Assembly: GCA_030390025.1 (NCBI GenBank)
Contig: CM059432.1
Location: 19,594,001-19,658,000 of the forward strand
DNA: 64,000 bases
Source: Squalus acanthias
Taxonomy: Eukaryota
Direction: 5' to 3'
Shown here: positions 10,091 through 58,266 of the stretch, piece by piece
How the letters are laid out: each line of letters starts with the position of its first letter
Position numbering within the stretch: position 1 is the stretch's first letter
Program-made: the position numbers and the translations under genes
Notes under the pieces: generated by a model
What the model was told of the DNA's origin: nothing
Databases searched by the model: none
What the model saw: only the letters and a program-made list of their open reading frames with translations

Positions 10091-10544
10091 GTAAGTGAGT
10101 GATTTTTAGCAAGTGTTGTACTTTGAAGCCTTTCAGAAATAATGAGGGAGTTTTGTACTTGCCAGAACACTCCCTGATACCAAGGAACCTTGAAATGAAT
10201 AAGGAAAACTCTTCCAGTAGCAGTAAGTAGCACACAGCCACTCAAACTGCAAAAACCCTGACAGGTGTGAGTGATTGATGAGGATCCCTTTAAATAGCAT
10301 CACTGCAGCTGGCTTCCTGCTGCTGCATGTCACCTCAACCTGTCGTTGCTTTCTCCAGCCGGTAAGTACTTTGGCTAAAATTAAGTTGGGAGATCGGGCA
10401 TCCAGTGAGCACTGCACATGCACTGACGTCACGATCTCCATCATGGCGAGCTGCTGGAACCGGCATCAGTTATCGTTACAGCTGTCAACGGCACTTTAGC
10501 ACCATCTCCTGGCACTAACATGTGGCCACACAAATTTCTCCCCC

Positions 10545-14176: not shown

Positions 14177-15506
14177 AGGAGCTGTCTAGGATGCATCCTT
14201 CCATCTGATTCCTCCTCTTCTGTGTCTTCCTCTTCCCTCTGCAAGCGGATGCTGTAAATGTGAAGTGCCAGCATAAAATGCTGGAAATACTCAGCTGGTC
14301 CAGCAGCATCATGACCTGAGACATGAACTCTGTTTTTCTCTCCTTGGATGTTGCGTGACCTGCTGAGTATTTGCAGCATCTTCTGTCTTCTCAAAGGCCA
14401 TCATTTACCATCCGAGCCCTTGCAAGCGTTCAGCAGCATTCCCTACAAACTTAAAAAAAACTTTTCACATCTATTGCAGCAAGCCACGACTTGGTCCAAA
14501 ACTTTAAATCCAAACTTACCTGAACAATCTGCGTGTTCCTTTAAGAGGTGCAGACATCGCCACTGACAGCCTACTTGCACGCCAGGTTAACCTTGCATGT
14601 TTAGGACCCAGCAGCGCTGGGGTCAAAGTTCGCGCTTGTGGTGTAAAGTCAGCATTGCATGCCGATTTATGTCACAATGCCGTCATTTTGTCCAGCATGG
14701 CGCTGCCACAAATGTAAGGATGAAAACAGCAGCCGCCGCGGGAAACGCTAGCAGCTGGCGAAAGAGCGGCGGCCACCGTTTTGGCAGCATTTAATGGGGC
14801 CACGGAGTGGTGCTAATGCCACGAATTTCTAGCCCAGAAATTCTGGTCAGTTATCTCGTTGGATTTTGTTGTGTGCAAATTGGTTGCTGTGTTTGCCTAC
14901 ATTACAACACTTCAAAAATACTTAATTGTCTGTGAATTGCTTTGAGGCATCTTAAGAATGTGAAAGAATGTCATAGAATGAATGTTCTTTCTTCATTCTT
15001 TCAAAATAATAGTACAGCTTTACAATATTGTTTTGGGCCATATATTTTCTTCATGGTGTAAACCATTACAAAACAGGTGCAGTTTGTAAACTGGTGAGGA
15101 AATATTTTCACAAACTGCCTTAAAACTGCATATAAAAATGATTTCCTCCAATTTAAAAACAATTGATCTATAAATAACAAAAGAAGACTGAAAGTTAGTT
15201 CTTAAGGGCTTGTTAATTAATAGTTAGGGCTCGATGTTGCCAGTTTGGGCGGGCTGGGGTGTGTCAGGTGGGATTCGTGTCATGACGCCGACTCCGAAGT
15301 GAAGTGTTGAAAAATTGCGATTTTGCCCTAATTAGGCAAGTGATTTCCAGCGTGTGGGAACCCCTGGCCCAATGAGGCTTTTCATACAGAAAGTCGCCTC
15401 CGATAACGTCATCAATGCTGCTGGATTTAAGGCCTGCAAGCAGCCTTGCTTCTTCTGGAGACTGGAAACGCTTTGGAAATTGTATGAAGGACTTCATTTA
15501 CCAGCC

Positions 15507-17479: not shown

Positions 17480-17737
17480 TCACAAGGGTAGTCACTTGGG
17501 TGCTGTGATGTTTTATATTTGGACCAGCCATCATTGTCATTGTATTATAAACAGATTTGATGGCAAACTGTTGAAGTTGTGGCCTGTGTCATTTCGCAAA
17601 TGGGACTTTCACATTGAGGGCTTAGGGCGCCTTGCAATTGTCAGTATGGTGGTCAGAGTGATAGGAATCCGCAGTTTCTTGTCCATTGTCGATGCTCTGG
17701 TAAGAAGGTGCGAGACAAAAGTGTTTGATTGTGCAGG

Positions 17738-17960
17738 CTAACCAAATCTGGCCAAGATGAGTGCGTCCCTTGCATCCCAGGCAGCAATGTTGTCGCGCGC
17801 TGGCGCCTTCTGGCCTGTGCAGCTTCAGGTGGGTGACTAGCAGCTTGGCACTCCTGTTGATGCTCCTGCTGTTGGTGCTGCTGCTGTTCATGGTTCTGCT
17901 GCTGCCACGGCTGGTCTTCGTCTGAATCTGATGTCCAGGAGGAAAGGAATTAAATGGTCG
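17738..17960 (-). pseudogene. Harbinger transposase C-terminal tail remnant
   Basis: Q/E-rich segment ending IAAWDARDALILARFG*, similar to the end of the 9541 transposase (RRAVRDWLIRLQFE*). Confidence 0.55.
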
Positions 17961-20900
17961 CCATGCTTCTGGTATATGCCTCAGTTGAGGAAGCGCTCAG
18001 TCAAGGTGGGGAGAGGAGTTTCCTAGGAGGTCACACTGGAGATGGGTGTCAGGCTCCAAACTTCCACAACAATGAGTAGGCCTGCTAAAAGTTCGCCCAG
18101 ACCTGAGACAACAAATTTCTGCCACATGCAAATGATCATCGGTGAAAACTCCTTTTTAATGGTGGAGCTGCAGCTGTTAGTAAGCAATCCAATTGTGAGG
18201 CCGCCAGGATTACCTGGCATGTTCCAGAGGAGGCGTGTAGGATGAGGGAAATGTCTAAAAATCAGAAAGGCCTCTCAAAATGGGATAATAGAGGCAATTA
18301 AGTGTTTGTTAAGGGCCTTAAGGGTCTATCCCGCCTCTTGGAGGCAGGATGGAAACGGGGTCAGAAAACACGCATGTGGGAAAATTGCTCGGAGGCGGGA
18401 TGGAGGCGGGATCTGGCCCGCCCGCCATTTTTTGTGATTTTACCACCTCACACGCCTCCAAACCCGCCTCCTCGTGCTTGGCAAAATCGAGCCCTTAGTG
18501 TCCGAACTGTACTTGTTGCATATTTCCATTGTACCGGTGAGATCCTTAACATAGACATGATTTGAAGAGGATGAGATTATCATTTATTCAGCATGCTGTA
18601 AATTTATAAATGGAGGTCAAGCTGTCCAAGTCTCACCAGCTTCGGTTAGCTTCAGCACAACCTGGTCAACTGTTAATGTTATACTGAAATTGACAGAAGT
18701 TGCTGAATAACTATCAGTTTTATTCATACAACCCTTTCAGACATCACTGAGAGTTTTCACTCAACCCCTGTTAGTAACCTTCAATTGGATCCACACAGCT
18801 TTCCCCTGCAGTATCAGGCCTAAACATTCCTCAACCATCGCACACCTCAGGAGTATCAGACCACGGCAACTCCAAGGGCTCCAAGCTCAGCAACCCCCGC
18901 AATGACAGCCCACACATTGACATAAATGATCAGCAAGTAAGCTGTAACTCAGATCATTTCTGTGAATGAGTCATTACTATCATGTCAGTCATAAATTTCC
19001 GAAAGTAATACTTTGCAAAAATTTAACGGCTCTCCTTATTCGGAATGATCAATCTCTTAATGAACTGAAAGCCAAAATGTCAGTCATTCTTAAATAGAAT
19101 GGATGTCCATAAATAGGGCATAAATGTTGATCATACACCTGAAACAAACATTTTATGGGAACCTAGTCCACTTAAAAGAGACATAGGGCCCGACACATGA
19201 GGGCCAGGGCAGCAGGGGAAGGCTGAGGGATGACTTAGCAGGGGAGATCCATGTAGTGGCAGCAGGGGTTGGTTGAAGATTGCCACCAGGCACCGGCCAG
19301 AGTAAATATATCTTGAGGAGAAACCTGTGTGTGACTATTCCCTATTATTACAGTATTTATAACTTTGCTTTGTGTAAAACACTGGATTTACAAATAGTTA
19401 AACAGTGCGTTACAGAAGTGTGAAACTGACCATCAGTATTGGTTGACCAATTTCCGCTGGGTGAGAAGATGAAACTCATGAGGGTCGAATCCAACAGCAG
19501 GAAACCTAAGACTTAAAACTTAAACCAGCTTACTGCACAAAATCGATTATCTTTACTAATTATTTCTAAAGGAAGAAAAGACAGCCTTAATATTCAAATA
19601 ACGCTCTAAATGATGAAAATTCTGCCATAATGCAAATTTTTTCTTGAAGTTTCCAAAGTCATAAAACTGTGCTCCTTCATCTTGTAGATCATTAGCAAAA
19701 TGAATTTCATTACTTTGAAAATATATGTACATCATTTTACATCATAGTATCTGATTCTGATTTTTAAAAAACCTATTTCTCTGCATTAACTCATGTCCAT
19801 CCAAAAATTTCCGTCCCTTCCTTTGGGAGCTCCCAGCCAGTTCAGACTGTTTTTGGGTAAACCAAGGGTTACATAACTGCAATCATTATATAATCTAATC
19901 CAAACTGCCGGAATATCAATTCATGAATGGAATTGGAACTCTTCCCATATTGAAATAAGATATTCATTACCTCTTTAGACTTTATAATTAGTATGTAGCA
20001 CTAATGGCTCAAACACTCAAAGCAGAGTCTGACATATTCATCCTTCTAATCCAACTTGTTATGAACACAGCAATAAAATTGCAGTGATTTATAATTGTGA
20101 ACAAACTGGTTTTGCCTATATTTGGTTGATTTCCCCATACACATTCAGCAATAGTTTCAAATAATCTCTAATTAATGTGCGTGATCAAATCATGTTTTTA
20201 ATGTCGCTCATATCGCAGCCGCATTCAACTTTCCTGCACAATCTCAAGTGATTTTTCTTTTCTATTTTCTGTATTTATTTTACACCAATACCCCTTCCAG
20301 GTCTACGGAAAAGTAAATTAGATCTCGAACATCAAGGGGCGTCAGCTCCTCACTTTTGTTTTTTTTTCAAATTTAATTCAAAAACAATTTCTGAAATATC
20401 CTTGGCCTTAAAATGGCACCATTCAATTTTAATGGATCCGCACTTAAGCGTAATTTTTTGACAGGCCCCACACTGCCCATGGGTTCATAAGCGTGTTTTA
20501 GAATGTTTAAATAGCATAAGCAATGCTCAGCAGTTAACAGCGCAAGCAGTATCAGAGCCTGAGCACAGCCTGTGGAACGATAGCAGGAGACAGCACATCG
20601 GGGGAGGAGAAAATTCTTTTTAAAAAGCTATTGAAAAAGTATTTCTAAACAAATAGAAAGAATAATCTGAATTAAAATTCTATTCTGTACATGTCTCCAG
20701 TTCTGTTTTATATTAAATAAAAAAGCTTTTTTTCCCCTGTTCTTATCTAAAAGCATAGAGGAATGTGATTCGAGAGCTGATGACATCTTTGGGTACTCAA
20801 AGGGTTGGATGCTAATCTGTGGAATTGCTCGCTTTTTTAATTTGTTTTTTAATTTTTGTCAAATTTCAAAGCAGATAAGATAAGCTTTTTCATTTTCATA

Positions 20901-22170: not shown

Positions 22171-23013
22171 GGGCTGGATTTTCATTGACCCGTGGAGGCG
22201 GGTTTGGAGGCGTATGGGGGTTAAAGTTGCAGGTTAAAGGTCCCGAACCCATCCCGCCCCCAACCCGCCTCCATGCCAGTTTTGCTGGAGGCGGGTACCC
22301 GACCTGTGCTGGGACCCGCCTCCCCGAGGTGGGAAGGGGATTAGTGACAATTAACTGCCTGTTAACAGGTTGTTAACAGGCAGTTTTTTGCCTAATCCCT
22401 ATTTTAAAAGCTGAAATGTGGGCTTCCCGAAAGGTCCCAACCACGCCAAGTAAGCGAGGCGGACCGTGGGTCTGCAGGGGTTGAAGGGGTCGATATGTCT
22501 GGTGGGCAGGTGAGTGATGAGTGCATGTGTGCAGAGGTAAGTGTGTAAGGTAAGTGTAAAGTATGGGAAAAAGTTTTACTTACCTTAACTTCCTCCTGCA
22601 GGTGTCAGCCCTTCAGGTCTCGGGAGTCAGAAATCTCACTGGCACAGAAAGCACAATGGCCGTGGTGCTGTCAAAAACTGCAGCCTTCTGTTTTCTGTGC
22701 TGGAATGATTTCTAACTCAGCCTGAGAGGAAGGACTCAAGTTAGAAATCATATTGTCAGTGTTTGACAGCTTCACAGAGCTGTCAAACGCTGATATTTCA
22801 TCTGTCAAAAGCTCTTGACAGATGAAATGTCAATCTGTGACGTCGCCTGTTGCCGGGTGGCCGTTAATTGGCCTGCTGAGCTCGCTGGGCGGGCTCAACA
22901 AGGTCAATCAAGTGAAAATGCAGTGGGTTGGCCACAAGTCGATGGAGGCGGGACTACAACCCAAAAAGTGGGAGTCCCGCCTCCATCACGTCCCCAGTAT
23001 CAAAATCCAGCCC
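22171..23013. mobile_element. Harbinger MITE inside the CR1 RT
   Basis: TIRs gggctggatttt / aaaatccagccc; TSD TTT; CR1 sequence rejoins across the insertion. Confidence 0.9.
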
Positions 23014-25335
23014 TTTGTGTACTTCTCACAACTTGCTTTCCCACCTATCTTTGTATCATCAGCAAATTTGGCAACAGTACACTTGGTCCCTTCATCCAAG
23101 TCATTAATATAGATTGTAAATAGTTGAGGCCCAAGCACTGATCATTGTGGCACCCCACTAGTTACATTTTGCCAACCTGAAAGTGACCCATTTATCCCGA
23201 CTCTCTGTTTTCTGTTAGTTAGCCGATCCTCTATCCATGCTAATATATTACTCCACCCCCCCCCAACCCCCATGAGCTCTTATCTTGTGCAGTAACCATT
23301 TATGTAGCACCTTATAGAATGCCTTCTGGAAATCCAAATACATTACATCTACTGGTTCCCCTTTATCCACCCTGCTCTTTACATCCTCAAAGACCTCTAG
23401 AAAATTTGTCAAACACGATTTCCCTTTCATAAAACCATGTTGACTCTGTTTGATTGTATTATGATTTTCTAAATGTCCTGCTATTACTTCCTTAATAATG
23501 GATTCCAGCATTTTCCCAAATACAGATGTTAGGCAAACTGGCCTATTGTTTCCTGCTTTCTGTCTCCCTCCTTTCTTGACTAGGGGAGTTACATTTGCGG
23601 TTTTCCAATCCGCTGGGACCTCTCCAGAATTCAGGGAATTTTGGTAGATTACAACCAACGCATCCACTATCTCTGTAGCCACTTCTTTTAAAACCCTAGG
23701 ATGCAGGCCATCAGGTCCAGGGGACTTGTCAGCCTTTAGTCCCATTAGTTTGCCTAGTACTTTTTCTCTTGAGAAAATTATTGTTTTAAGTTCCTCCCTC
23801 CCTATAGCCCCTTGATTATCAATTATTATTGGGATGCTTTTAGTGTCTTCTACCGTGAAGACCGATACAAAACATTTGTTCCAAGTCTCTGCCATTTCCC
23901 TTTTTCACATTATTAATTCCCCAGTCTTATCCTCTAAGGGACCAACGTTTACTTTAGCTACTCTCTTCCTTTTTATATACCTGTAGAAGCTCTTACTTTC
24001 TGTTTTTATATTCTTTGCTAGTTTACTCTCATAATCTATCTTCTCCCTCTTAATTATTTTTTTAGTCATCCTTTGCTGGTTTCTAAAAATTTCCCAATCC
24101 TCTGGCCTACCACTAATCTTTGCAACATTGTGTGCCTTTTCCTTCAATTTGATACCATCCTTAGCCACGAACGGTTCATCTTCTCGTAGAGTCTTTCTTT
24201 CTCGCTTGTAAGGGGGCGTGTCTCAGACGGTGCTGGTGCGAGGTTAGGCCTTCGTTGCCTATACTATTGCTTGCTCTGGTCTCCGGCCAGCCTTTTTGCA
24301 ATAAGCACCTGTGAGTGGTTCGACCCACTCGCCCTTACGGTTCTAACACCTGGACTTAGATGCAAGGAGCAGTAATGCAGAGAAAACTCAAATAGACCCG
24401 GTTGAATAGTACAAAATGGAAATCTTTATTGCATGGCGTCTAAAATCATGAAATACATGTCATAGGCACAAATCAACGAGAGTACAAGTATACATACATT
24501 CATAAAGCTTGGTCTATGGAAATGGAGAACACACGGCACATCGTAAAAAGGGGGAACACATTATACCTTAACCTTATTAAAAACCACCCTCCCTTAACAA
24601 TACCTACACTACGTCTGGATTTGTAGGATCGTAAAACATGCTCACCACTCGTGTTACTTCGGAGATTTTAAAATGAGGCACTCAGCTCGTTTCGCTACAG
24701 CGCCTGACTGTCACGTGTTTGGAAGGGTCTCTGCGCCCCACTTGTATACTTTCGCTGCTGCGAAAAACAGGCCAGACTCCCTGTTGTCATGAAGAACTCG
24801 ACAGAACTCGGAACGTTTGTAAAATTCAAAGAAGAGTCTTCCTGTGTCCGGTACAGGTTGTAGTCTGTAGAACTCAAAGAAGAGTCCTGTATTTATATTT
24901 TCGGGCGCGGTCGGGGTTTACTGACCGTGGCGGCACGTGGAATTTCTTCTCGTCTTCTTCTCGTCTCCTCTCCTCGGGCCTCCGGGTCCAGATACCATTT
25001 ACCGACACTCGGGATGGTGTACCCTGTTACTTGCCCTTGTCGGGGCGGCTCGTTCCGATTGAGCTCCACCCAACACTTGAATAACCGACCAGTACGGCTA
25101 AGAGTCAGGAGTCAACAAAGTCCAGAGAAACACAAAGTCCAGCCCCAAGGAAGAGCTTCAGCAAGGGTCCGCAGAGAGATAAGAGAATAAGAGACCGATG
25201 GACATTTGTTCTCTATAGTTATAGTGATGTGTCCGCTTATCTCCCGCTCAAATCTTAATGTTTGTCCTTTGTGTAATATTTGGCGCTCAAAACTCCCAGC
25301 ATGGGGCGATTATCTTCTTTAACGGGTTTCGGTAG

Positions 25336-26370
25336 CATCGACAGTTCCGACGGCCACAGCGAAAAACCGCATAGACCTCCTCAGAAGACGAACACGGGAC
25401 ACAACCAACAGAGTACCCTACGTCGTCCAGTACTTCCCCGGAGCGGAAAAACTACGCCATGTTCTTCGCAGCCTTCAACATGTCATCGATGACGATGAAC
25501 ACCTTGCTAAGGCCATCCCCACGCCTCCACTACTCGCCTTCAAGCAGCCGCCTAACCTCAAAAGTACCATCGTTCGCAGCAGATTACCCATCTTTCAGGA
25601 GAACAGCAACCACGACACCACACAACCCTGCCACGGCAACCTCTGCAAGACATGCCAGATCATGGACACAGATACCATCATCACACGTGAGGACACTACC
25701 CACCAGGTACATGGTACATACTCATGTGACTCGGCCAACGTTGTCTACCTGATACGTTGCAGTAAAGGATGCCCCAGAGCATGGTACATCGGCGAGACCA
25801 TGCAGACACTGAGACAACGTATGAACGGACACCGCGCAACAATCGCCAGGCAGGAGGGTTGCCTCCCAGTCGGGGAACACTTCAGCAGTCAGGGGCATTC
25901 AGCCTCGGATCTGCGGGTAAGCGTTCTCCAAGGCAGCCTTCGGGATACACGACAGCGCAAAATCATAGAGCAGAAACTGATAGCCAAGTTCCGCACTCAT
26001 GAGGATGGCCTCAATCGCGATATCGGGTTCATGTCACGATACAGAACGTGACTGGACATCATGGCCGGTCTTTCCAGCCTTTTTTAAAAAAAAAACTAAC
26101 ACAAGAACCAAAGTCAACTGCAGAGGATATGCAGCCAGCAGGTGTTTTGACACGTTGGACCCCCTGGGACACATCTCATTGTCTTGGCTGTGCTCTTAGT
26201 GTGTCTTTGATGTAGGGAAAGATTTGAATACACTTTTTCTGTGTTTATATTGTGAATTCTGGGAGATTCTCTCACAGCTACTCTACCTGAGGAAGGGGCG
26301 ACAGCTCCGAAAGCTTGTAATTTTAAATAAATCTGTTGGACTATAACCTGGTGTTGTGCGACTTCTCTTT
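25336..26370 (+). mobile_element. 5'-truncated Penelope-like element (GIY-YIG endonuclease and pseudo-LTR)
   Basis: PCHGNLCKTC...SANVVYLIRCSKGCPRAWYIGETMQTLRQRMNGHR...VGEHF...EQKLIAKFRTHEDGLNRD; stop at 26051. Confidence 0.93.
26281..26325 (+). ncRNA. Minimal hammerhead ribozyme motif in Penelope pseudo-LTR
   Basis: CTGAGGA (26287-26293), stem II ggggc-gaca-gctcc, GAAA (26309-26312), palindromic AAGCTT, then GTA. Confidence 0.7.
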
Positions 26371-35603: not shown

Positions 35604-36318
35604 AGAGGTAGAAAAAAGACTGAGGCAGAAAAAGCGAATATCAAATAATAAGGCAGAAATTTCTACAAAACTGCAAACAAAAAGAAGAGATTCTTGTTGA
35701 AACCGGTTTCGGCCTGTTTTCAGGCCCAAAATAGACGATGTGCTGCAAGCGCTTGTCAGAGGCCAGAGGCCCAAGGCTCACCCAGATTGGGCCCCATTTT
35801 AGTAATAGAGGTGAGCGGCCGGTGCCTGTCACACCTCCCGAGGCAGCTCACCTGACGTTGGGGATCGAATTTGGGCCTGTTGCCTCGCCGACAGTGGGCC
35901 TCAGGTAAGTCCTGGGAGGGGGCGCGGAGGAAAAGGCAGACTGGCAGTGGCCCACAGCAGTGCCGTGGGGGCGGGAGGAGCACTGCTGCTCCTCCTGGCT
36001 TCACAGTAGGGGGAGGCAAAGGAAACGTTCCTTACCATTTCTTTGGCTGTCTCCAGCAGCCTCTTTAACGATTGCTGTCGAACTGGGAAAAAACAGAAGG
36101 GTCCTGAAACAGGTGCAAGACTCAACTTTATATATTTAAATTGATACAACGCCGATTTTGGTCCGCCTCCAGGTATGTCTAAAAACACTGAAGAAAATTG
36201 TGGTGGCAGCCATGCTTCCGGCGCAGATCGGACACAGGGCCTCACGCTCAGAAATCTGCATAAGCTGTGTTTGGTTTACACCTGAAAAAAGGACGAAATG
36301 CATACCACTTTCTACCCC
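35604..36318. mobile_element. Probable Harbinger-type MITE
   Basis: Ends gaggtagaaa / tttctacccc; GC-rich interior with ggaggagcactgctgctcctcc hairpin like other MITEs here. Confidence 0.55.
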
Positions 36319-36994
36319 ATTATCTTCCGTCTTTCTAAAGGAACTAAACCTTATGGTATTGTAAATTACCTCTCCGTAAATTTTTCTCTAACTAAAATAA
36401 GCAATGTAATTGTTAAATGAGTATTCTGTAGCTGTTTGTTCTGCAATCCTATCCGTATCGGCGGTGATAATCTTATAAATATTTATGGAGCCCAAGGGGT
36501 CCTATTAATATTCATTTCCATCAGCTCTTTTGAATAGCTCAGACAATATACAAACATCAACTCTCAAAAGCATCACTTTGGGCAAACAGAATGCAAAAAC
36601 ACATCTTAAAGTTCCTGATAATTATGCGATAACAAGAATTATCGTGGTGAGAGTTTTATAGCAATGTCACAAAGTGCAGACGCCGCAACATCTTCAGGGT
36701 AAAGAGGATAATCGGTATAACTTGACCTTTACTTCACTGATGAAGAAAATACGACGTCAAACAGATTGTTCTGCAGAATTTAAACCTGGTGATGTACACT
36801 TAGATGCAATCAGTTTGAAGAAAGGAAAGTTAGTGTTGCCAATCAATACACACTTCCACAAAATAAAACACCAAACGTGCCAATCCTTCTACGCACACCT
36901 CAAGCACCAGCCCTGAAACAGTGACTCTCTTACAGGCACAGCATGGAGTCTACCTTGATTCGAGCCACACCAAATGCCTGCCAGTTACAATATA

Positions 36995-37950
36995 TTCCAG
37001 TTCTGATGGAAGGTCAGCGACCTGAAACATTGGCCTGGAATTTAGGTTGGAGGTGAATTCCATGCAGGCGGGGCTGTAGTGAGGTCGGAAGAACGGGTTT
37101 CCCGAATGTCCCGCAGTTTTTAAACTGCGGGGCTCCTTTAAATTTTTTTCTGTCGGGTTCCCGCCCACAGGCAGACTGATTGACAGGCTGGAGGCCTTTC
37201 AGGCAGAAAGCCTGCTCCACAAGGTCGCAGCCTACGAGAGCAGCGGGGAGTGAGAGAGATCGTGGGGGGGGTCCCGATCGCGCGTGGCGGGGGGGGGGGG
37301 GGGGGCGACGGTGGTTAGGGTGGTCCCGATTGCAGGAGGGGGTGGTCCGATGATGGTTGGGCATGAGCAGATGGTGGTCGGGTGGGTTCAATGGTGGTCA
37401 GGGAGGGTCCCGATCGCAGTTGGGGGGGGGGTTCGATGGTGGTCAGGGGGAACAGACAGATCATGGGGGGTTTACTGGGTAGCTTGTTGGGCCTGGAGGA
37501 AACACTCCTGCTCCTCCTGACCCACAAGCAGTGCCGTAAAGGCACTTACCTCATGGATCCATCCCTTCTCACCTCCTTGCACCTGCCAGGTTTCCAGAGG
37601 CCCGGGAAACCTGGCAGAAATGAGTTAAAAATAGAATGACTGTTAAAGTTAAGGCAGGCAGCCTCATTATAATATTTAAATGACCAAGCTGCTTCCCGCG
37701 AGCGGATTGGTCACTCACTCCTCATCCCACATCTGTTAAAACTGGAAGTGGGCTGGTTCAAGGTGGGTTGGACTCCTGTTTCAGATTTTTTGCATTTTAA
37801 CCTCTGACACGACCCCAACCTACCTGTTTTTGGAGTTAAGGTTCAGCCCATTAACTCTGTGTCTCTCCACAGATACTGCCTAGCCTGCTGAGTGTTTCCA
37901 GCAGTTTCTGTTTATATTTCAGATTTCCAGTATCCGCAGTATTTTGCCGT
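36995..37950 (+). mobile_element. Penelope pseudo-LTR-like short repeat with hammerhead-like core, split by a MITE
   Basis: ctgatggaaggtcagcgacctgaaacatt | aactctg...ctgctgagtgtttccagc; homologous to 41203-42090. Confidence 0.6.
37032..37849. mobile_element. Harbinger MITE with G-rich interior
   Basis: Ends ggcctggaattt / aaggttcagccc; TSD ATT (37029-37031, 37850-37852). Confidence 0.75.
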
Positions 37951-38239
37951 TTGCACAATATATTCCTGTCACTTTGTGCTTTCTGTTTCGCTGAAGTTCA
38001 GCTGATTTGATGGCAAAAGAAGGCTTTCTCATTGCTCATGACAGCAAAAGATTAATCAGCAAATGCAAGTGGTTTTAAAGGGTGATATATTTGGTCATAA
38101 AAGCTCAACTTGTCTGAGAAAGCTTAGTGGCAGGCCAAGGCACGGGACCACCGAGGTTGATAAATGCAGGAGAAAAGATGAGATAAATCAACAAGTTGTG
38201 GTTACACAATGCTAAGCTTGGGTGTTTAAAGCTTGTAGA

Positions 38240-38785
38240 TTGTAGAGTCATAGAGTCACAACGGCACAGAAGGAGGCCATCAAGTCCATGCCGGTTCTCT
38301 GTAGAGCAATCCAGTCAGTCCCATTCCCCTGCTCTATCCCCGTAGCCCTGCAAGTTTATTTCCCTCAAGTGCCTATTCAGTCTCCCCGTAAAAACATTGA
38401 GTGTTTCCGCTTCCACCACTTTCATCGGCAGCGAGTTCTAGGTCCTCACCACTGGCTGCGTAAAATTTTTTTCCCTCACATCCCCCCTGTATCTCTTGCC
38501 CAAAACCTTAAATCTGTGTCCCCTAGTCCTTGTACCATCAACTAGTGGGAGCAGCCTTTCCCCGTCTAGCCTAGGCAAGCAAGAGTGAAGGAGGTGAAGA
38601 GTTCCACAATTTCTAGGTCCTGGGTAAGAATGAGGCTATTTTTCATGCCCTTCAGTTACTGACTCACCAACCTGTGGAAATAGATTTTCTGATTTCCCTT
38701 ACCAAAACCACTTATAATTATCAGATCTCCTCTTAACCTTCTTTGTTCTAACGCAAAGAGCCCCAGTTTCTCCTCATAACTAAAG
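38240..38785 (-). mobile_element. CR1 3' end, degraded
   Basis: (TAGAGTCA)n tail; cacagaaggaggccat 3'UTR motif. Confidence 0.8.
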
Positions 38786-41202
38786 GTGATTTGGCTCCTG
38801 ATTGCCTTTTTAAATGAAGCAAATCTTTAGTATTTTGAATGAACAGAGTCCACTTTTTTAGTGGCATTCAATTTTCCAAATTCTCCAGATTGGAAATATG
38901 TAGGCTGCTCATTTGCTTTGACATTTTAACATGCAGGCACCAGACTGGCTGCCTCCCTCCCTCCCTACAATCCCTCCAACTCTCCGTGTAGTTTCAACAG
39001 GACCTGCCCCATGTACTCCTCTTCATATGTCTTGAAGAAGCAAGAAAAAAATATGGACATGTATCAACCAATTGTACACTGCGCATCAGACACAGGCACT
39101 CTCCCAATGAGAGGCATGAGTGCACAAGGGAGATGTAACTAATGCAGGATCAAACCTGACATTGCACAGGCACTTTTCTAAAGCCACCAAGTATCTTTCT
39201 TTGATTCTAGTAACCAGTGTTGGAAACTTAGGACTTATTTAAAAAAAAAGATACAATGGCAGAAAACATGTGTATTGTTTGAAAACTGCAATGGACCCTC
39301 AATATGCAAAGTAGTTAAACACCACCTTTAAGTGCCGCAATCTCCTCTCTCCTTTTCAAATTAAATGCGAATAAAGGACCTGTGTAATTTTCAATGATGA
39401 TCTTTAACAAATTGTATGGAGAACAAGAGCTCGTAAAGGAATCCATTTTGTTGGTAAATACTCCGTTTTATACTAAGCCCTAGCATTAAAAGCCTGAAGA
39501 ACTTTGCAGTCTTTACTGAGGTCACAAGCAGTCTGATCTTGAGGTCAAATTACACAATGATTACATATAAACCTAGACTTTATCACTGTTTTTGCATGCC
39601 TCGAGACTAATGTATTTGTAATTGTTCTCATGAGAATGCCTTCTATACCTTGTTAGCCTTCCAGAGCAACCTTGCGAACCATAAACACCAGTAGTTCTAG
39701 CCTTCGAGACCACAGACATTAGAAAGTCCTGGGCGATAGATGTTTGGTGAGCCTGGAAGTTGATAAAGATTGGTATGAGCTGGTACATTGTGTGTATAGG
39801 TTATGGAATGTACAGTATACAGATTAATGGTTAGAAAAGGGTATAAAAAGAGCATGATCATAGTCAGAAGATAGATGAAGAACAAAAAGATGAGGCAGAA
39901 GGAAGAGATCTAGAAAGTTGGGCTCAATGACCAGAACATGTATCTTCTGCAGCAAAGCATCACTACATGCTGACTGCGAGTATTTCCTTTAACCTTTAAT
40001 AAATTGTACATGTTTGACTCCTCCATCTAGAACCCTCATTTCTGGTACATAGACAATGACTGCAGCCTCAGTCTATCATTACAAAATTCATACTGCTGGC
40101 ATAAAAGATACTACCCTGTTTTTTTTGTGGATGAAACTCTGATGTGGCTCGACACGGATTTATTTTGGCTGAGAGGTCTTCCCTCAGATAAGATACAGAA
40201 TGCAAGGTGAACTTCAGGACAAACAACTGCAAACTGCAGCCTCCAAGCACAGACATCGAATCTTATTAGCCGATAATGTCAACTCTTTAGTTTAACTAAA
40301 CTTAATCTAGTTGATAATTGTACATTGTTTAAAATCAATATTCTAGCCCAATTACATGATTAGACGTTTATGTTGCACAATCAAATCTCAAAATGTCGAT
40401 GAATTCGTCTGGGGGCTAATTTGCTGAATTCATGCAGCTGTCGGAGAATCTTGGCCAGCAGCCAAAACGTATCGGAAAAATCACAAGCAACAGGCTTGCA
40501 ATCTTCCAATATGTGTCACCATCATGTATTCAGAAAATCACACCCAGTGCATTAGCAAAGTAATAAAAGCCCAACACTGAATAATCCCTCTAATCCAAGT
40601 TTGCAATTAGTTTACTGAGTACAAGGCTATTTCCTTTGTGTTACAAAATCGAAAACCTGTTTAACAAAAGAACAGGTTATGACTTAGTGGCATACAGTAT
40701 ACGCAGGAAAACTTCCCCTTACATTTGATGATGTCTCAAAAGGATTACTAAATCACTCCTTGCTGATTAAATAATTAAGCCTGCCTCTGCCATCACATCA
40801 CACAAAAGAGTGTTAAAACACCAAAACTCGTGGACAGAAAATTTGTTGGCATGAGGTGACTTATTGTGAACCGGTTCAATGAGGCAACATGCAATTTATT
40901 CCAGATCTGAAAGTAACTGTTCACTGGGTTATGGGTAAGAAGAAGGAAGTCAATAGGTTGTAGGACAGTTTCGATAAGTCGGGTGAATGGGCCGATGCAT
41001 GGCTGATTTTATTTAATGTGTACAAACGTAGTGTCATGCACTTGGAGTTGAATAACTCTGCACATGTTTGGATCACTAAGGGATGCTTGTTTTCTTTTTA
41101 TTCGTTCCTGGGATGTGGGTGTCACAAGGCCAACATTTATTGCTCATCCCTAATTGCCCTTGAGAGACAACTAAGTGGCTTGCTAGGCAATTTCAGAGGG
41201 CA

Positions 41203-42090
41203 AAAGCAAAATACTGCAGATGCTGGAAATCTGAAATAAAAAACAGAAAATGCTGGAAACACTCAGCAGGTCAGGCAGCATCTGTGGAGAGAGAAACAGA
41301 GTTAATGGGCAGAATTTTCATTGACCCATGGAGGTGGGTTTGGAGGCATGTGGGGGGTTAAAATTGCGAAAACTGGCGGGCGGGCACAAGCCCGCCTCCA
41401 TCACGCCTCCACGCAATTTTCATTAAATCGTGTCTGCTGGTCCCGACTCCGTCCCGCCTCTAAGAGGCGGGATAGGCTGTTAAGGCCCTTAACAAGCACT
41501 AAATTGCCTCTATAATGCCATTTTGAAAGGCCTTTGTGATTTTAACCCTTTTTCTACGTGAAGCACGTCTGTTCTGAACCACGAATGTGAAACCTGGCGG
41601 GAGCACATTTCAATAGCTGACTATCAGCTGCAGGTCCACTATTACAACGGAGATGTGATGATGTAGTAGTAGTAGTAGTAGGAGGAGGAGGAAAAAAATA
41701 TATATCTGGGAGTGGTGGTGGTGGTACAAAAATATCTGGGAGCAGACTTAGGGCTGCTGCTGCTCATTTTGCCTCCAGGTCCTTTCACAGCAAAGGCCAG
41801 GCAGTCTTTGCAGACCTTCAATACAGCAGCAATGATGACATCATCAGAGGCGACTTTCAGACTGAAAACACTAATTGGGTCATGGGTTCCCACATGCTGC
41901 AACTCAATTGCCCAATTAGATGAAAATCGCATCAATCTCCCACATCCAATTGCAGTCGGGTGGATAACACGAAAAGTGGATAACATGACCCCAACCCGAC
42001 CCAGTATCAAAATCCAGCCCAATGTTTCAGGTCGATGGCCCTCCGTCAGAACTCTGCTGAGTATTTCCAGCATTTTCTGTTTTTATTTCA
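41203..42090 (-). mobile_element. Penelope pseudo-LTR-like remnant with inverted end
   Basis: 14-bp TSD aatttcagagggca (41189-41202, 42091-42104); cagaaaatgctggaaacactcagcag inverted at 42054-42080. Confidence 0.7.
41307..42020. mobile_element. Harbinger MITE related to the 15227-18494 element
   Basis: TIRs gggcagaatttt / aaaatccagccc; TSD AAT; both subterminal regions resemble the 15227 element. Confidence 0.88.
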
Positions 42091-43094
42091 AATTTCAGAG
42101 GGCAGTTCAAGAGTCAATCACATTGCTGTGGATCTGGAGTCACATTTAGGCCAGACCAGGTAAGGACATTAATGAACCAGATGGGTTTTTACGACAACCC
42201 AGTAGTTTCATGGTCACCATTACTGATACTAGCTTTTTATTCCAGATTTATTTAATTAACTGAATTTAAATTCCCCAGCTGCCAGTGATGGGATTATGAA
42301 CTCACGTCTCCGGATCATTAGGCCAGACCTCTGGATTACTAGTCCAGTAACATAACCACTATGCTACCATTAAAGCCAATGGATCAAGAAAGAGACCTGG
42401 GTAATAGTCAATCACTCATTGAAAGTGCACAGATAGTGTGAGGTGACTACAGGGAAAGCAAATAGGAGTTTTAGGCTGTGTTGCTAGGTCCATCAAATAG
42501 AAAATGAAGGACACTATAGGTTAAATAAGGCTCTGGTACAGTTGCACTCTGTCCAGTTTTGATTTCTGCATATAGTTAAGGATTTTTAAAGACTTGGGGT
42601 TATTTACTTTGGAGAAGTGCAGGCTTCGAAGGGAATCATAGATGTTTTCAAAGTGATGAAGGGTTTGGATACATTCCTGTTACATAAATTATTTGACATG
42701 TGTAGGGATTATACTTATAAAATCTGTAGGTAAAGTATTAGGATAGCTATCAGCAACAAATTCCTTTCACAAAGTGCCAGCGCCCTTTATAATAAATTGC
42801 CAGGACATGTGGTGAGTGTGGAATCGCTCAGTGCTTTAAAAGGAAACTTGACAAGTGCCTAACAGAAGAGGTTGTTTCCAGTTAGAGAGAGTAAATTATT
42901 AGTTAGTTGTAGTTGTGATGAGTCACTGGCAACTGTGGCCTCCTGGAGTCTGAGAGGAATTTGGAGTTTTTTTTTGAAGTAGCCACAGGTTCTTTGCCTC
43001 TCCCAGAATTGGGGGAGTGCGGATGAACAGCGTGCGAGGTCGGAGCATTGAATGGCCAGGCCACCTTTGTTATCGTATGGTTATAAGATCCTAA

Positions 43095-45060: not shown

Positions 45061-45294
45061 TGTGGTACCTTTTGATGTGGTACCTTCCTGGCTGACTTAA
45101 TTAACTTTATCACACCTCGGCAGATAGTCAGGATGATTTAATTTATTGGTCTGCAATTGTAAAGTACACATGCTTTTTTTTCCATCTCTGGCGATTCTGT
45201 ATCCAATTTACTTCACCTGAGGAAGGAGCGATAGCTCCGAAAGCTTGTGATTTCAAATAAAACTGTTGGACTATAACCTGGTGTTGTGCGACCT
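45061..45294 (+). mobile_element. Short Penelope 3' (pseudo-LTR) insertion in CR1
   Basis: 12-bp TSD ctctatttatga (45049-45060, 45295-45306); last ~80 nt match 26285-26368. Confidence 0.85.
45211..45255 (+). ncRNA. Minimal hammerhead ribozyme motif (second copy)
   Basis: CTGAGGA, stem II ggagc-gata-gctcc, GAAA, AAGCTT palindrome. Confidence 0.65.
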
Positions 45295-47559
45295 CTCTAT
45301 TTATGAAGCCCAATATCCCTTATGCTTTTTTAACCACTTTCTCAACCTGCCCTGCCACCTTGAACAATTTGTGCACACATACCCCCAGGTCTCTCTGTTC
45401 ATGCACCCCCTTCAGGATTGTACCCTTTAGTTTATATTTCCTCTCTTCATTCTTTCTACCAAAATGTATCACTTTGCACTTTTCTGCATTAAATTTTATC
45501 TCAGTGCTCCGCTCATTTCACCAGCCTGTCTATGTCTTCCTGAAGTCTAATACTCTCCTCCTCACTGCTCACTATATTTCCAAGTTTTGTTTCATCTGCA
45601 GATTTTGAAATTGTGCCCTGTACACCCACGTCCAAGTCATTAATATATATCAAGAAAAGCAGTGGTCCTCGTACCGACCCCTGGGGAACCCCACCGTATA
45701 CCTTCCTCCGGTCCGAAAAACAGCCTTTCACCTCTACTCTCTGTTTCCTGTCACTTAGCCAATTTCGTATCTATGCTGCCACTGTCCCTTTTATTTCATG
45801 GGCTTCAACTTTGCTGGTAAGCCTATTATGTGGTACTTTATCAAACACCTTTTGGCATTTGATAAAGTCTCAGTGGTTTACAAGTTGAGTGCAGGGAGAA
45901 GAACACTGAGACAGAGATGGGAAAGGATTCCAGGTGGGGGAATTAAAAGCACAGTCAATTGATATTTTTAAGAGGCCTTTGAAGGAAAGGAGAGAGGTGG
46001 CATGGCGAAGTAGATTTGAGAGAGGGTTCTAAAGACAAGCACATGGTGGCTGAAAGATTAACTACTGAAGGTGGAGCAGAGAATGAGTAACGAGTCACAA
46101 TCCGAGGTGCAGGGCTGGAGTGTGCGATAAACTTAACCTAGCTTGCTAGAGCAGTGCTGACTGTTGCAGTGTGTGAACTGAGGTAATTATATGAACTTCA
46201 AAAGACATTAAAACATTTTGACGATAGGGTTGCCATCTTTTGCCAAGTCTAAAAGCAGAGAGGAGGCAGGGTTGTGGTTGAGCAGTAGGTGGGATTATGG
46301 TTGGTTGCTCCGCTGATAATAAAACAATATTGAAAAACAGTAACCAACATTATAGGATAGAGGAAAGATAGGGCTTGCTTGTCCAGTTCGCATCTTATGA
46401 ATATGCAGACACCTCACTCAAAAATACCAGCTCCTGACAAAGGCGCATCTCCCGACTGCACTGCTCCAGACAAGGCACTGAAGGAAGGCAGTGAGGAGGT
46501 CTGGCTGCAACAATGGGAGTTGGGACATTAAATAACTGGAGCAGGTGATCTGGTATCCTTCTGGATGGATTATGAAATTCGTAAGGTTTTCAAAAACTGG
46601 ATTGTCTGATTCAAAATGGGACAGGTGGCAGTCCTATCTGAAATTGGACCGTAGCCAGCAAGCATTTTCAACATGCGGGATTACTTTTCCGAAGATTCCG
46701 CTGCCTTTTAGTATATTCCATCACACCCATGCACTCTGGTGCAAAGGTTAAATAGATGCATGTGCTATTTCTTAAGAATTTGTGCAGACACGTTGAAGAA
46801 TTAGCAAGGGAGGTGTTAACGTGCCAAAATACCAATTTAGTGTTTGAAGATAGTTTCTCCCAGTATTCATTGAATGTCAGAACTTCTTTCCACTTTGTTG
46901 TGTCCCCTGTGCCTCTGAAGTGCAATAAAGCAGTCCATATTGGATTTAGCTGATAATGATTCATGTCCATTGGGCTGTTTTACTTCCACTTATCTTGTTT
47001 TTATGATGATGACTTAAATGTGGTCCATCTGCAAAATAAAAAAAAGACAAAGCACTTTACTGACAAATATTTTGCCATTTTAAACGAACACAAGATATGG
47101 ATAATAGATAAATGATAAGATAGTCTCAGAGTTCATACATGTTCAGGCCAGTTTTATGAACTCCTGCCTCTGGCTGGAAGCTATACCTGCCGGACACGTT
47201 TATCGGGAAATTACAGACACGCTCCCCGTGATTGTTTCTGTCCATTAAAATTAATGGAGAGAAATATGGCTATTCTGCTCCCAGCGGGTGAGGCTTCCCA
47301 CCAGCAACAAGAATTCATAAAATCAGCTCTAAAAAGATAACAAGAAAAATTAAAGGCTGAAAATCCGATATAAAAAGCAGTAAATGCTGAATATACATGG
47401 CAGGTCAGTCAGCACCTGAAAGAGAACTGCAGGTTAAGATTTCAGGAAAGGCCCTGTGTCACAACCTGATTGGTTACAATCTCAATCCTGTCCGGTTGTC
47501 GAAACTTCTGATTGGCATATCTGAATTCTAAAATGTTCCAGAGACTATTGCAGGAGGCA

Positions 47560-47811: not shown

Positions 47812-49627
47812 GGGGCAGAAATTCGGGTCTCTACGGGTGAGTACGTGCTGTGTACTCACCCGTAGGCCCAACGAAAGTGCCGATTTCTTGCATGCACTGT
47901 GCGGGAAACCAGGACTTCCGTTCCCCTGAAGGAAGGGGTTCAGAGGTCGAAAATTTGCAGATGATACAAAGATGGGAGGGAAAGTAGTGAGTGAGGAGGA
48001 CATAAAAAACCTGCAAGGGGACATAGACAGGCTAAGTAAGTGGGCAGAGATTTGGCAGATGGAATACAACACTGGAAAGTGTGAGGTGATGCACTTTGGC
48101 AGGAAAAATCCTAGAGCAATTTATTATCTTAATGGCAAGAAACTGGAGAGTACTGAAGTGCAAAGGGATCTGGGGGTCCTGGTGCACGAAACTCAAAAGG
48201 TTAGTATGCAGGTGCAGCAAGTGATTAAGAAGGCAAATGGAATGTTGGCTTTCATTGCTAGGGGGATAGAATATAAAAATAGGGAGGTATTGCTTCAGTT
48301 GTACAAGGTATTGGTGAGACCGCACCTGGAATACTGCATACAGTTTTGGTGTCCTTACTTAAGGAAAGACATCCTTGCTCTCGAGGCAGTGCAAAAAAGG
48401 TTCATTCGGTTAATCCCGGGGATGAGGGGGTGGTCATATGAGGAGAGGTTGGGTAGATTGGGACTCTACTCATTGGAGTTCAGAAGAATGAGAGGCGATC
48501 TTATTGAAACATATAAGATTGTGAAGGGGTTGGATCGGGTGGATGCGGGGAGGATGTTCCCGATGACGGGTGAGACTAGAACTAGGGGACATAGTCTTAG
48601 AATAAGGGGCTGCTCTTTCAAAACTGAGATGAGGAGGAACTACTTCACTCAGAGGGTGGTAGGTCCATGGAATATGCTGCCACAAAAAGCTGTAGAAGCT
48701 ACAACATTAATTAAATTTAAAACAGAAATAGACAGTTTCCTAGAAGTAAAGGGCATTAAGGGTTACGGGGAGCGGGCAGGAATTTGGACATGAGTCTAGG
48801 TTCGGATCGGTCATGGCCCTGTGGGTAGTGGAGCGGGCCCAGGGACTGTGTAGCCTGATTCTGCTCCTATTTCGTGTGTGCAATTCTGTTAGATGCAGGA
48901 GATGGTTCTGTGATAGATAGTAGATTGGCGGTTAGGATCAGATCAGCCATGATCTTATTGAATGGCGGAGCAGGCTCGAGGGGCCGATTGGCCTACTCCT
49001 GCTCCTATTTCTTATGTTCTTATGTTCTTATGAACGCGCACGCCGGAGGGCCAGCGCGTTCGCCTCGCACTTCGGGTTTTTTTTACAGGTTCCTCCGTGA
49101 GGGTAAGCACGGAGAAGATGCACATTGAAAAAGGAGGCGCAAGGCCTTCTTTTAACAAGGTAAGTGTTGATTTTATTCAAATTTAAACATTTTTTTCAGA
49201 GATTTATCTTTTTTAATTACTTTAAAGAAAGGTAAGTTTAGTTTTAGCCCCGTTAAAAAGTGTAATTAATTTTTTCAAAAATTAAAATTTTTGTTTAAAA
49301 TAGTTAATTAATGTGATTTTTAAAAAAATTATTTGTAGTTTTAGGGATGTTTTGGGGCCGATCTGTATTCATAGATTTGACAGGTCTCCTGTCAAATCTA
49401 TGAATGAAAGATGGTCTGCTGCCATTGGCTCTCCATGGCCCACGTGATCCCAGGGGACGCATCGCACTAACTACGCCCCTGGGATACGCAAGCACTGCGC
49501 GCCGGCAGTTGGAGGAGGCCCAGGACCGGAATCCCCCGCGGGCCCAGGGGTCAACGGCAGGCACGGTAGGTAGGTGCGCGCGCGATCCTTGCACCCGCGG
49601 GAAGCCAGGGCGCCAAATTTCTGGCCC
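47812..49627. mobile_element. Harbinger MITE family B copy 2 (inverted), split by a CR1
   Basis: TIRs ggggcagaaatt / aatttctggccc; TSD AAT; homologous to 5427-6189. Confidence 0.88.
47951..49032 (+). mobile_element. 5'-truncated CR1 LINE
   Basis: ORF 47972-48793; (TTCTTATG)n tail. Confidence 0.95.
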
Positions 49628-49959
49628 AATATTGTATTTTGATGCAAAAAATCCAGATGTGTACAATTAAATGACAATAAATTTGTCATTTTATTGTACA
49701 TCTGATTGAGAAACGTGGGATTGGAGAAAAACAAATTAAGCACATTTCAGACTGAAGCTGAATGTACCTTTTGTGCATTAAGTTTTGAAAATTATGATAA
49801 TTGTAATATATGTGGGTAGAACAAATGAAGGACAGAGACAGGATGAGTTGCTAGTCCATGTGCTTGTTTTACTAGGCCAGGGCGAACTTTAGCATGCTCA
49901 TACCAAACCATGTGATAAACCATGTGACAATACATAACACTGCTTTCCCCTTAAAAAAT

Positions 49960-52430
49960 TCTCCTCTCAATATTGCTAGGCACAGTTTGTGATTGGTTAT
50001 CAGGGTAAACTTTCTGCCAATCAGGAACTGTTGGAATTTCTTGATTCCAAACACTATGGCGAGTGCTTCCTTTTCAATTTGTGCGTAGTTTGCGAACGCG
50101 ATTGGTTTCTCTTGGCCGTCATCCATTACGTGGCTTATGACAGCTTCCACACCATAGCTAGAAGCATCACACGCTAACTTAAGCTCACGCTCTGTGTCGT
50201 AGTGCACAAATACAGCATCGCTAGAGAGACTTCTCTTACAAGCATCGTAAGCTTCCTGTTGCGCTTTTGTCCACTTCCACTGGACATCCTTCTTGAGGAG
50301 CTCATGCAATGGTCGCTAACTAAGGTAAGAAACGTGTGTAGTACTGGACCATTCCAAGGAAAGAGCTTAACTCAGACACGTTCTGTGGCTTTGGAGCATT
50401 GATGACAGCATCAACCTTTTCCTTCACTGGTTGCAAGCCATTTGCATCAACTTTCAGACAAAGATACACAACCTCGGGTTGCACAAAAGCACATTTGCTC
50501 CTTTTCAATTTGACATTGTGGGAATTCAACCTTTGAAGCACTAAATCTAACACTTCTAGATTTTCTTCCTCGCTGCATGTTGCGATTAGCACATCGTCTT
50601 GATTGCATAAGCAGTTTGGAATTCCTTGCAAAATCTTATCCATCGTAGCCTGGAAGATTTTGAAGGAGGACATTACACCATACGGCAGCTTGGTGTATGA
50701 GTACAGTCCCTTTTGTGCGTTGATAGTAACATACTGTTGACTCTCTTTGTCAACATTCAGCTGAGCGTAAGCATGTGACAGGTCAAGCTTGGAGAAAACC
50801 TTTGACCCAGAGAGGGCTGCATACAAATCCTGCAATGTCGGTAACGGGTACTGCTCATCGTCGACTGTTTGGTTGATAGTAACTTTGTAGTCACCGCACA
50901 AGCGTACAGTTTTGTCTGCTTTGGGCACTACCACAATCGGGGCAGTCCATTCACTTTTGTCAGTTTTTACTAGCACTCCGTTCTCTCTGAGCTTCGCTAG
51001 CTCTTCCTCCACCTGACTTTTCAACGCATAGGGGACCAGCCTTGCCTTACAATAGACAGGCTTCGTGTTGGACTTGATGCGGATATATGTGTCATACCCA
51101 GTGATGTCCTCACAACTGTCTGAGAACATGCTTTCATACTTGTTCAGCATTGTGTCGAGTCACTTCTTTGAAGCATCTACACTAAAGATGTTTTTCCAGT
51201 CCAATTTTAACTTTCTCAACCAGTCTTTGCCCATGAGGGTTGGCCTGTTGTTGTAGCTCACTACAATAATAGGCAGCTTTACTGACTGGCCATTGTGTTG
51301 TTCTGTACATTCCATTTGTCCACATGTCTCCAGGATTTCTCCGAGTAGGTTTTTAACTCTACGGTACTCTTTGGAAGTGGTATTTGATTAAACTTACTCT
51401 CATGTGTGTCCTTACTCATGATGGAGCAGTACTCCGCTGTGTCAATACACATATCAATATATTGCTCGTTGACCAAAAGTTTTGTACGGAAGTCTTTCTC
51501 ACGACTGCTTGCGTTGCCGTTAGTGGCATAGATACTGTAGATGCCTAATTTTTCAACATCAGGTGTGTTCACTTCAATATTGTGAACTCCCTTTTGTTGT
51601 CGCTGCTTTGCATTGCCACTGGAATGGTTCTTACTTCCTGCTTTTGATCTAGCTCTGCAAGCTGTTGAAATATGGCCTTGCTTCTGGCAGTGAAAACACT
51701 TCGCATTTCTGTATTGGCAGGACTGTGGAGAGTGATTTCCACTGCAGCGATAACAATTCACTGAACTGCTTTTGACTTGGTCTCACAACTTTAGGTTTGG
51801 CAGTGGCTTTGTGACTGTAGACCTCAGCTGCACTAGTCACTTGAGTTGGACGGAGCTCTCTTGCTATCTTAGACGTCATCTCCATAGTTAGGGCAATTTT
51901 GCATGCTATGTCAAACATTAGGTTCGGAGTGCTCAGTAATTTGGACTGTGCGCGCTCATCCACCAGTCCACACACAAATTTGTCTCGCAACGCATGATCC
52001 AAAAATGTGCCGAAGTTACAATGTAAAGACAGGTTTTTAAGAGCTACAATGTACTCACTGATGGTTTCACTTTGTTTTTGGATTCTGGTACCAAACTTAT
52101 AGCTCTCTGCTATTTCTAACGGCTTTGGGTCAAAATGGTCCTCGAGTTTCTCGACAATGTCTTCAAAAGACACATCTTTCGCTTTCCCTGGCGCGAGTAG
52201 GTTTGTCAACGTTCCGTAAACATCTGGCCCGATCTCGGTTAGAAAAATTGCTTTCTTCTGTTCATGAATTACTTTATTTTGAGCTTGAACATTCTCATCT
52301 GCACCTTCAGTCTCAATAATGTTATTGGCCTTAAAAACATCTCCATCCGCTCAATGTAAGAACTGAATGGTTCCCAAACTTGGTCATACATGCCGAGGCT
52401 TCCAATGAATCCCATAGGCACAGCCATGAA
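49960..52430 (-). pseudogene. Gypsy gag-pol (gag, two CCHC-type knuckles, protease, RT, RNase H), frameshifted
   Basis: LEDHFDPKP..LRDKFVCGL; CYRCSGNH, CFHCQKQGHISTAC; CIDTAE protease site; VRLCGDYKVTIN..FSKLDLSHAY..LPYG..NQDD; LACDASSYG..YAQIEKEALAIVFGIKKF. Confidence 0.93.
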
Positions 52431-57512: not shown

Positions 57513-58266
57513 GGGCTGGATTTTCAATGACCTGTAGTGTCGGTTTTGGAGGCGTGTGGGAGGTTAAAGTTGCGGGGTCGGGGGTCCCGACCCCATCCCG
57601 ACTCCATCCCACCTCCACGCAATTTTGACAAAATCAGTCACGGAGTTCCCGACTCCGTCCCGCCTCCAAGAGGCGGGAGAGGCCATTAAAGCCCTTAACA
57701 AGCCCTAAATTGGCTCTGTAATGCCATTTTGAAACGTTTTAGCTAGTTTAACCCTTTTTGGACGTGAAGTACGCCTGTTGTGAAACACACCAGTGAAACC
57801 TGGCGGGAGCACAAGTGGATAGCTGACTATCAGCTGCAGGTCCACTATTATAACGGAGATGTGATGAAGGTAGTAGTAGCATTGTGATGAAGGTAGTAGT
57901 ATTAGGTCTGAAAGTCGCCTCTGATGCTGCTGCATTGTCTTCAGAGACTGCCTGGCCTTGCTGTGAGAGGCCCTCGATGAAAATAAAAAATCTCTCTCTC
58001 TCTCTCTCTCTCCATATTTTGCATCCAGGTCCACTCACAGCAAAGGCTAGGCAATCTCTGAGACCAGGCAGCCTGCAATGATGACATCATCAGAGGCAAC
58101 TTTCCCACTGAAACCACTAATTTGTTCATGGGTTCCCACATGCTGGAACTCAATTGCCCAATTAAGTGAAAATTGCATCATTCATCCACATTTTTCTGGA
58201 GTCGGGGGGACAACACAAAATTCGGGTAACACGACCCCAACCCGACCCCAAGACAAAATCCAGCCC
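57513..58266. mobile_element. Harbinger MITE (relative of 41307-42020) nested in older MITE debris
   Basis: TIRs gggctggatttt / aaaatccagccc; TSD TAT. Confidence 0.88.

Follow-up and report, generated by a model that had tools for sequence, protein, structure and literature searches.

Two Harbinger-like elements at one base of a hammerhead-like repeat

A 64,000-nucleotide stretch of the Squalus acanthias genome (assembly GCA_030390025.1, contig CM059432.1, positions 19,594,001 to 19,658,000 of the forward strand; called the window below, with positions counted from its first base) contains two Harbinger-like MITEs (miniature inverted-repeat transposable elements), M1 and M2, which interrupt two separate copies (A and B) of a hammerhead-like repeat at the same base. 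The coordinates of these and related features are collected in Table 1. An earlier sequence-only reading had placed M1 within gacctgaaac[ATT]aactctg (37032-37849), and the coordinates, target-site duplications (TSDs) and flanks of both elements were as described; M2 had been given as an element with a different interior in the reverse complement of the same site in a separate repeat copy, with which the TSDs and alignments agreed. The TSD of M2 is AAT on both sides, that is, ATT on the hammerhead strand, and the terminal inverted repeats (TIRs) agree over 12 nucleotides at 8 positions in M1 and 10 in M2. After removal of the MITE and one TSD copy, the hammerhead strand has GAAAC-ATT-AACT at either site, and copies A and B aligned in this way were identical at 116 of 128 positions. 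The site does follow a CTGANG-stem-GAAAC core, as had been proposed; its suggested placement in stem III is refined here, in that the duplication falls on the predicted cleavage triplet (positions 16.2, 16.1 and 17 in minimal-hammerhead numbering), and the predicted helix III of the minimal motif is only about 2 bp.

M1 and M2 are independent insertions in two separate repeat copies. Local alignments of the two elements, the comparison that had been suggested as a check on independence, scored 23 and 28 and did not exceed the best shuffles (28 and 30); the interiors are hence unrelated. The flanks outside the repeat are also unrelated between the two loci, with a single 24-nucleotide match in common (E = 0.02) when 1 kb was compared on each side. 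How M1 and M2 are oriented in the repeat was weighed as a hint of shared ancestry and then set aside, the best end-to-end alignment being no better than those of shuffles.

Table 1. Positions of the two MITEs, the copies of the repeat and related elements in the window
Feature	Position	Strand	Remarks
Repeat copy A, left part	36999-37031	+	5' strand of helix I, core box at 37003-37009 with G at its position 9 (37009), 5-bp helix II, GAAAC, first TSD copy ATT (37029-37031)
MITE M1	37032-37849	.	818 bp, 12-nt TIRs, no close relative elsewhere in the 64 kb
Repeat copy A, right part	37850-37947	+	Opens with second TSD copy ATT (37850-37852), then helix I 3' strand
Repeat copy B, portion downstream of hammerhead motif	41206-41306	-	Includes TSD copy (41304-41306)
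MITE M2	41307-42020	.	714 bp, 12-nt TIRs
Repeat copy B, core part	42021-42053	-	TSD copy (42021-42023); hammerhead core and helix II, 42049 to 42024
Inverted partial repeat copy adjoining copy B	42054-42096	+	
Empty diverged repeat copy C	14245-14389	+	Triplet ATG; without full motif match
Empty diverged repeat copy D	47356-47418	-	Triplet CTT; full motif match shifted by one base, unoccupied
Longer Harbinger-like relative of M2	15227-18494	.	TSD TTA, Myb/SANT-like open reading frame (ORF); outside the repeat
MITE with ends in common with M2	22171-23013	.	TSD TTT; outside the repeat
M2-family MITE	57513-58266	.	TSD TAT; outside the repeat
Second-family minimal-hammerhead motifs (GAAAGCTT)	26283-26322, 45213-45253		Uninterrupted; the first lies after a GIY-YIG-like ORF (25323-26051)

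Recurrence of insertions at the same base

Contigs of four public runs (X1, X2, X15 and X16, the last labelled as another organism) were placed on positions 41200-42098; X1 may come from the source of the window itself. At least nine contigs (one from X1, two from X2 and six from X16) joined a diverged repeat arm to 10-16 nucleotides of TIR at the same base; these were found among 32 pieces listed out of 242,500, in rows chosen for length, and the number is a lower bound. Because their repeat arms differ by 13-21 letters, the junction contigs come from other copies of the repeat, and an empty repeat copy would agree with only 2 of the 16 TIR letters in them. Just inside M2, X16 had a depth of about 200, where X1 and X2 reached about 5e5 to 9e5 (run depths were not taken as copy numbers), and because of this low X16 depth the six X16 junctions are likely to represent other Harbinger families inserted at the same base. 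Among the 24 loose-end rows listed of 1549, none lay at the TIR end.

The probability of two or more insertions falling on the site by chance was 2e-6 if any WWW triplet (W being A or T) can serve as target, and 0.005 if only sites with the full target motif described below can; both values are post hoc and assume eight paired Harbinger-like elements in the window and three repeat sites, with a fourth, more diverged copy uncounted. The hot spot recurs and is base-exact, and the proposal that the repeat is a sequence-specific, recurrent Harbinger hotspot was borne out within the window and the listed contigs by the independent insertions, the same-base junction contigs and the motif match, which is the best in the repeat.

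The target motif

The six paired Harbinger-like elements that lie outside the repeat in the window preferred the motif A-N-N-Y-[WWW]-R-N-N-T: of their 12 flanks, 10 have A at position -4 (P = 1e-4) and 11 a pyrimidine at -1 (P = 0.003). These counts cover the paired elements, with unpaired TIR-like ends left out. All TSD copies of the six consist of A and T only. By a matrix derived from these elements, the hammerhead site ranked first in both pre-insertion copies and within the top 0.38% of window positions, and five of the six training sites fell within the top 1.3% in leave-one-out analysis. With G in the triplet the site dropped to the top 3%. The filled copies contain 25 and 42 WWW triplets, among which the hammerhead site is the sole full-motif site in either copy; the use of ATT and not of the overlapping TTA or TAA follows from the full motif being found at ATT only. 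The motifs of the second hammerhead family in the window, which is of Penelope type, ranked in the top 7-8% by the matrix, and neither of the two carried an insertion.

The repeat as a hammerhead-like sequence of probable Penelope type

Contigs departing from the reference at position 41305 continued, by consensus, as the empty repeat (566 in X1, 734 in X2, 1353 in X16 and 590 in X15). In X1, X2 and X16 the empty consensus runs from an intact CUGAUGA box through a single unpaired A and a helix II of 5 bp to GAAA, followed by C-G-U-U and a 4-bp helix I. This commonest empty form has both core boxes, CUGANGA and GAAA, which the two filled copies, with G at position 9, do not. Positions 15.2 and 16.2 are C and G, and palindromic, in the commonest form (X1, X2 and X16), whereas both filled copies have C and A there and lack the palindrome. 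Position 9 is followed by an unpaired base, helix II is 5 bp, and helix I measures 4 bp in copy A and more in copy B. Helix II of the repeat opens with A-U instead of the G10.1-C11.1 pair, which is highly conserved in minimal hammerheads (PMC4209133); because of this replacement the repeat is filed here as hammerhead-like, its membership among the minimal hammerheads of Penelope-like elements (PLEs) being weaker.

Inverted partial repeat copies stand next to copy B (Table 1) and copy C (14245-14310), and an adjacent inverted partial copy is described as common in Penelope-like insertions (PMC8557442). No reverse transcriptase (RT) or GIY-YIG ORF was found beside any of the four repeat copies in the window. 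The GIY-YIG-like ORF elsewhere in the window matched PF01541 (E = 2e-4, just under the cut-off) and is followed by a hammerhead of a different family; a PDB sequence search with this Penelope-like ORF returned nothing meaningful. Rfam gave no hammerhead match for the repeat and likewise missed the intact motif behind the GIY-YIG-like ORF, and its negative is hence uninformative. Taken from the sequence features, the repeat is probably of Penelope origin, and self-cleavage by the hammerhead of its family would be predicted; in one PLE, hammerhead cleavage is reported to occur only with protein, and to be dispensable for insertion in vitro (PMC11167929).

Neither viral contigs nor the first metagenome scan yielded a match to patterns of the repeat. 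Seven metagenome and four genome pattern matches were rejected as repeat copies, being only 21-31 nucleotides long without extension into the repeat, and were put down to chance. At 36910-36930, 90 bases upstream of copy A, the window has a short similar stretch that may be a remnant; in runs X1 and X2 the triplet of some empty variants reads GTC or GGT.

Decay of the repeat and the probable order of events

In the commonest empty form the triplet is GTT (loose-end consensus; X1, X2 and X16), and all four TSD copies at M1 and M2 read ATT. The G of the triplet lies in a CpG, and both decay products were seen among empty copies: ATT was read in 991 empty contigs of X16, the others numbering 1353, and in 751 of X15, the others numbering 590, and the X15 consensus at 41305 is the opposite decay product. 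CpG methylation may be the cause of the triplet decay. Decay is more likely to have come before insertion, because decay afterwards would need four changes in the same direction.

The GTT-to-ATT change also breaks the 15.2-16.2 pair. Both filled copies have G at core position 9 (42043 in copy B), where 97% of X1 depth has the A of the family. A9 is important for hammerhead catalysis. Given G9 and the broken 15.2/16.2 pair (C-A), the insertions probably hit copies that were already inactive. The earlier supposition that insertion would inactivate the motif is not upheld, both filled copies already departing from the family at positions 9 and 16.2. The G9 common to copies A and B may reflect a subfamily or be a coincidence.

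It is unlikely that the order was the reverse, with elements of the same target preference inserting at GTT in intact copies, possibly destroying an active ribozyme, and both TSD copies decaying later. Both TSD copies do stand in a CpG context (one after GAAAC, the other after the terminal CCC of the TIR), and CpG decay is common at the site, as the counts of empty ATT copies show. However, four separate changes in the same direction would be required over two loci, the TSDs of the six other elements are all A/T-only, and the G form of the site scores much lower by the matrix.

Interpretation

The hot spot is real, recurrent and base-exact, and is explained with good probability by the usual target choice of Harbinger elements, exercised on a decayed Penelope-type repeat that is abundant. 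In this explanation the motif would take its left half from the GAAAC box of the hammerhead and its right half from AACT, the 3' strand of helix I, and a CpG-type G-to-A change would turn the GTT triplet into the A/T-only ATT, thereby creating the target. The repeat, being very abundant, would offer the same good site many times, so that different MITE families could land on it independently, and insertion would part the core from helix I in copies that were probably dead already.

Several points weigh against this explanation. The evidence on filling comes from the 24 of 1549 and 32 of 242,500 rows that were listed. The matrix was built on only 12 flanks, which had been seen before the motif was fixed, so the P values for the motif are not blind; two of the six outside elements have mismatched TSD copies, and one of the six training sites fails in leave-one-out analysis (top 16%). 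Copy D has a full motif match shifted by one base, yet is unoccupied. With the four-position motif, the fill rate in the window is about 2-3% per site, at which two filled sites have a probability of 3e-4 to 8e-4, and the site may be hotter than this motif predicts. A longer target preference, as in zebrafish, is assumed here to cover the excess; the preference given for vertebrate Harbinger elements in PMC2836001 is 15 bp. The order of decay and then insertion rests on two loci.

Selected targeting, in which Harbinger elements would have evolved to recognise the Penelope-type hammerhead, either as a safe haven or against a competitor, is improbable. It would account for the position of the duplication exactly on the predicted cleavage triplet, for recurrence with other TIR-bearing families, including those in the run labelled as another organism, and for heat that may exceed the prediction from the short motif. 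It is countered by six of the eight paired elements in the window, which lie elsewhere with the same flank motif, three relatives of M2 among them, by the two uninterrupted motifs of the other hammerhead family and by the already degenerate state of the hit copies. Targeting of the ribozyme, as the sequence-only reading had put it, finds no support, since the site is the repeat's best match to a motif that is used outside the repeat and three M2 relatives insert elsewhere.

Descent from one ancestral composite of repeat and MITE, amplified by retrotransposition or by local inverted duplication, is more improbable still. The two loci are inverted and 4 kb apart, and have ATT and the minority G9 in common; against this, the alignment of M1 with M2 does not rise above shuffles, the flanks past the repeat are unrelated, the M2 family occurs at other sites with TSDs of its own, and 12 differences over 128 positions separate the repeat copies. 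Pure chance is the least probable account: with dense MITEs and a common repeat some window would show two insertions at one site, and this one was chosen for the pattern among many, but the WWW-only null gives P = 2e-6 and at least nine more junction contigs share the base.

On the preferred explanation, ordinary target choice, a known transposase preference combined with a very abundant repeat is enough to give a base-exact hot spot without evolved targeting, and the pattern of a transposon in a ribozyme can mislead its readers. If the CpG link holds genome-wide, the sites would carry an internal clock (insertion of the repeat, decay, insertion of the MITE), and thousands of near-identical sites would become available for measuring the effects of single bases on Harbinger site choice.

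A broader idea, which is possible though we hold it more doubtful than not, is that the minimal Penelope hammerhead core as such is a latent Harbinger target, that CpG methylation both kills the ribozyme and arms the site, and that dead copies form a lineage-wide Harbinger sink. GAAAY would then be the left half of the target, the cleavage triplet the TSD and helix I the right half. A single mutation would do both wherever the palindrome of the dimer is CpG, insertions would mark decayed copies only, sparing active ones, and dead Penelope copies would be a quantitatively important sink for many Harbinger families.

Relatives of the MITEs and other elements in the window

M2 is about 81% identical to the MITE at 57513-58266 and 76-81% identical to both end regions of the element at 15227-18494, the ORF of which matches PF13873 (Myb/SANT-like, E = 3e-10). 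A DDE_Tnp_4 match (E = 9e-7) lies in 8599-10544, an element whose TIR is similar but which blast did not connect with M1 or M2; a tblastn search with this fragment found no match inside 15227-18494. Both MITEs have a 3-bp TSD and short TIRs, the six other paired elements show a target preference beyond the TSD, and M2 has a Myb-bearing relative; PIF/Harbinger elements are described as having a 3-bp TSD, a partner protein of Myb type and an extended target (PMC2836001). No Myb/SANT-bearing relative of M1 was found in the 64-kb window, and M1 is assigned to the PIF/Harbinger type by its TIR and TSD only.

M1 is weakly similar to about 35925-36140 (score 64 versus a shuffle maximum of 35) and contains an antisense splice-donor-like motif at 37542-37551. 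Further Myb-like remnants detected by tblastn (7514-7795, 9010-9201 and 11848-12030) suggest several decayed Harbinger families in the window. A Harbinger-like MITE at 47812-49627, of the same family as 5427-6189, has the TSD AAT, flanks that do not match the motif and a CR1-like fragment inside. Many CR1-like ORFs are present in the window, and broken minus-strand ORFs at 49872-52350 resemble, by eye, the gag and pol of a long terminal repeat retrotransposon.

Comparison with known systems

The hot spot is a new instance of the known Harbinger target preference. A literature search, beyond whose reach lay most subscription journals and Repbase, found no report of it. The alignments of fish and other minimal hammerhead ribozyme families in PMC4209133 may list the motif of the repeat. 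The main text of bioRxiv 10.64898/2026.07.22.740005 has no occurrence of Harbinger or shark.

The repeat shares with the minimal hammerhead ribozymes of PLEs the core boxes, the unpaired base that follows position 9, a short helix I, dispersed single copies and, in its commonest form, a palindromic 15.2-16.2 (compare PMC4209133), as well as the adjacent inverted partial copy of PLE insertions (PMC8557442). It differs from them in that its 5-bp helix II starts with A-U where theirs has a conserved G-C, that the window shows no RT or endonuclease ORF linked to it, and that both filled copies have G9 and A16.2. The MITEs resemble Tourist-like MITEs such as mPing in being short and non-autonomous and in having TIRs, a 3-bp TSD rich in A and T and a preference that reaches past the TSD (as presented in PMC2836001). 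The plant preference is 9 bp, usually centred on TAA or TTA, whereas the register used here is ATT, although shifts of one and two bases would give TTA and TAA.

The closest parallels were with zebrafish Harbinger3_DR and Harbinger3N_DR, for which PMC3016246 describes a 3-bp TSD within an extended palindromic target consensus, with A at -4 and a pyrimidine, C, at -1. Harbinger3_DR also has a Myb-like ORF, found here in the longer relative of M2. In contrast to the CWG of the zebrafish target, the central triplet in the window is A/T-only and the preference looks looser, and the hot spot described here lies inside another mobile repeat.

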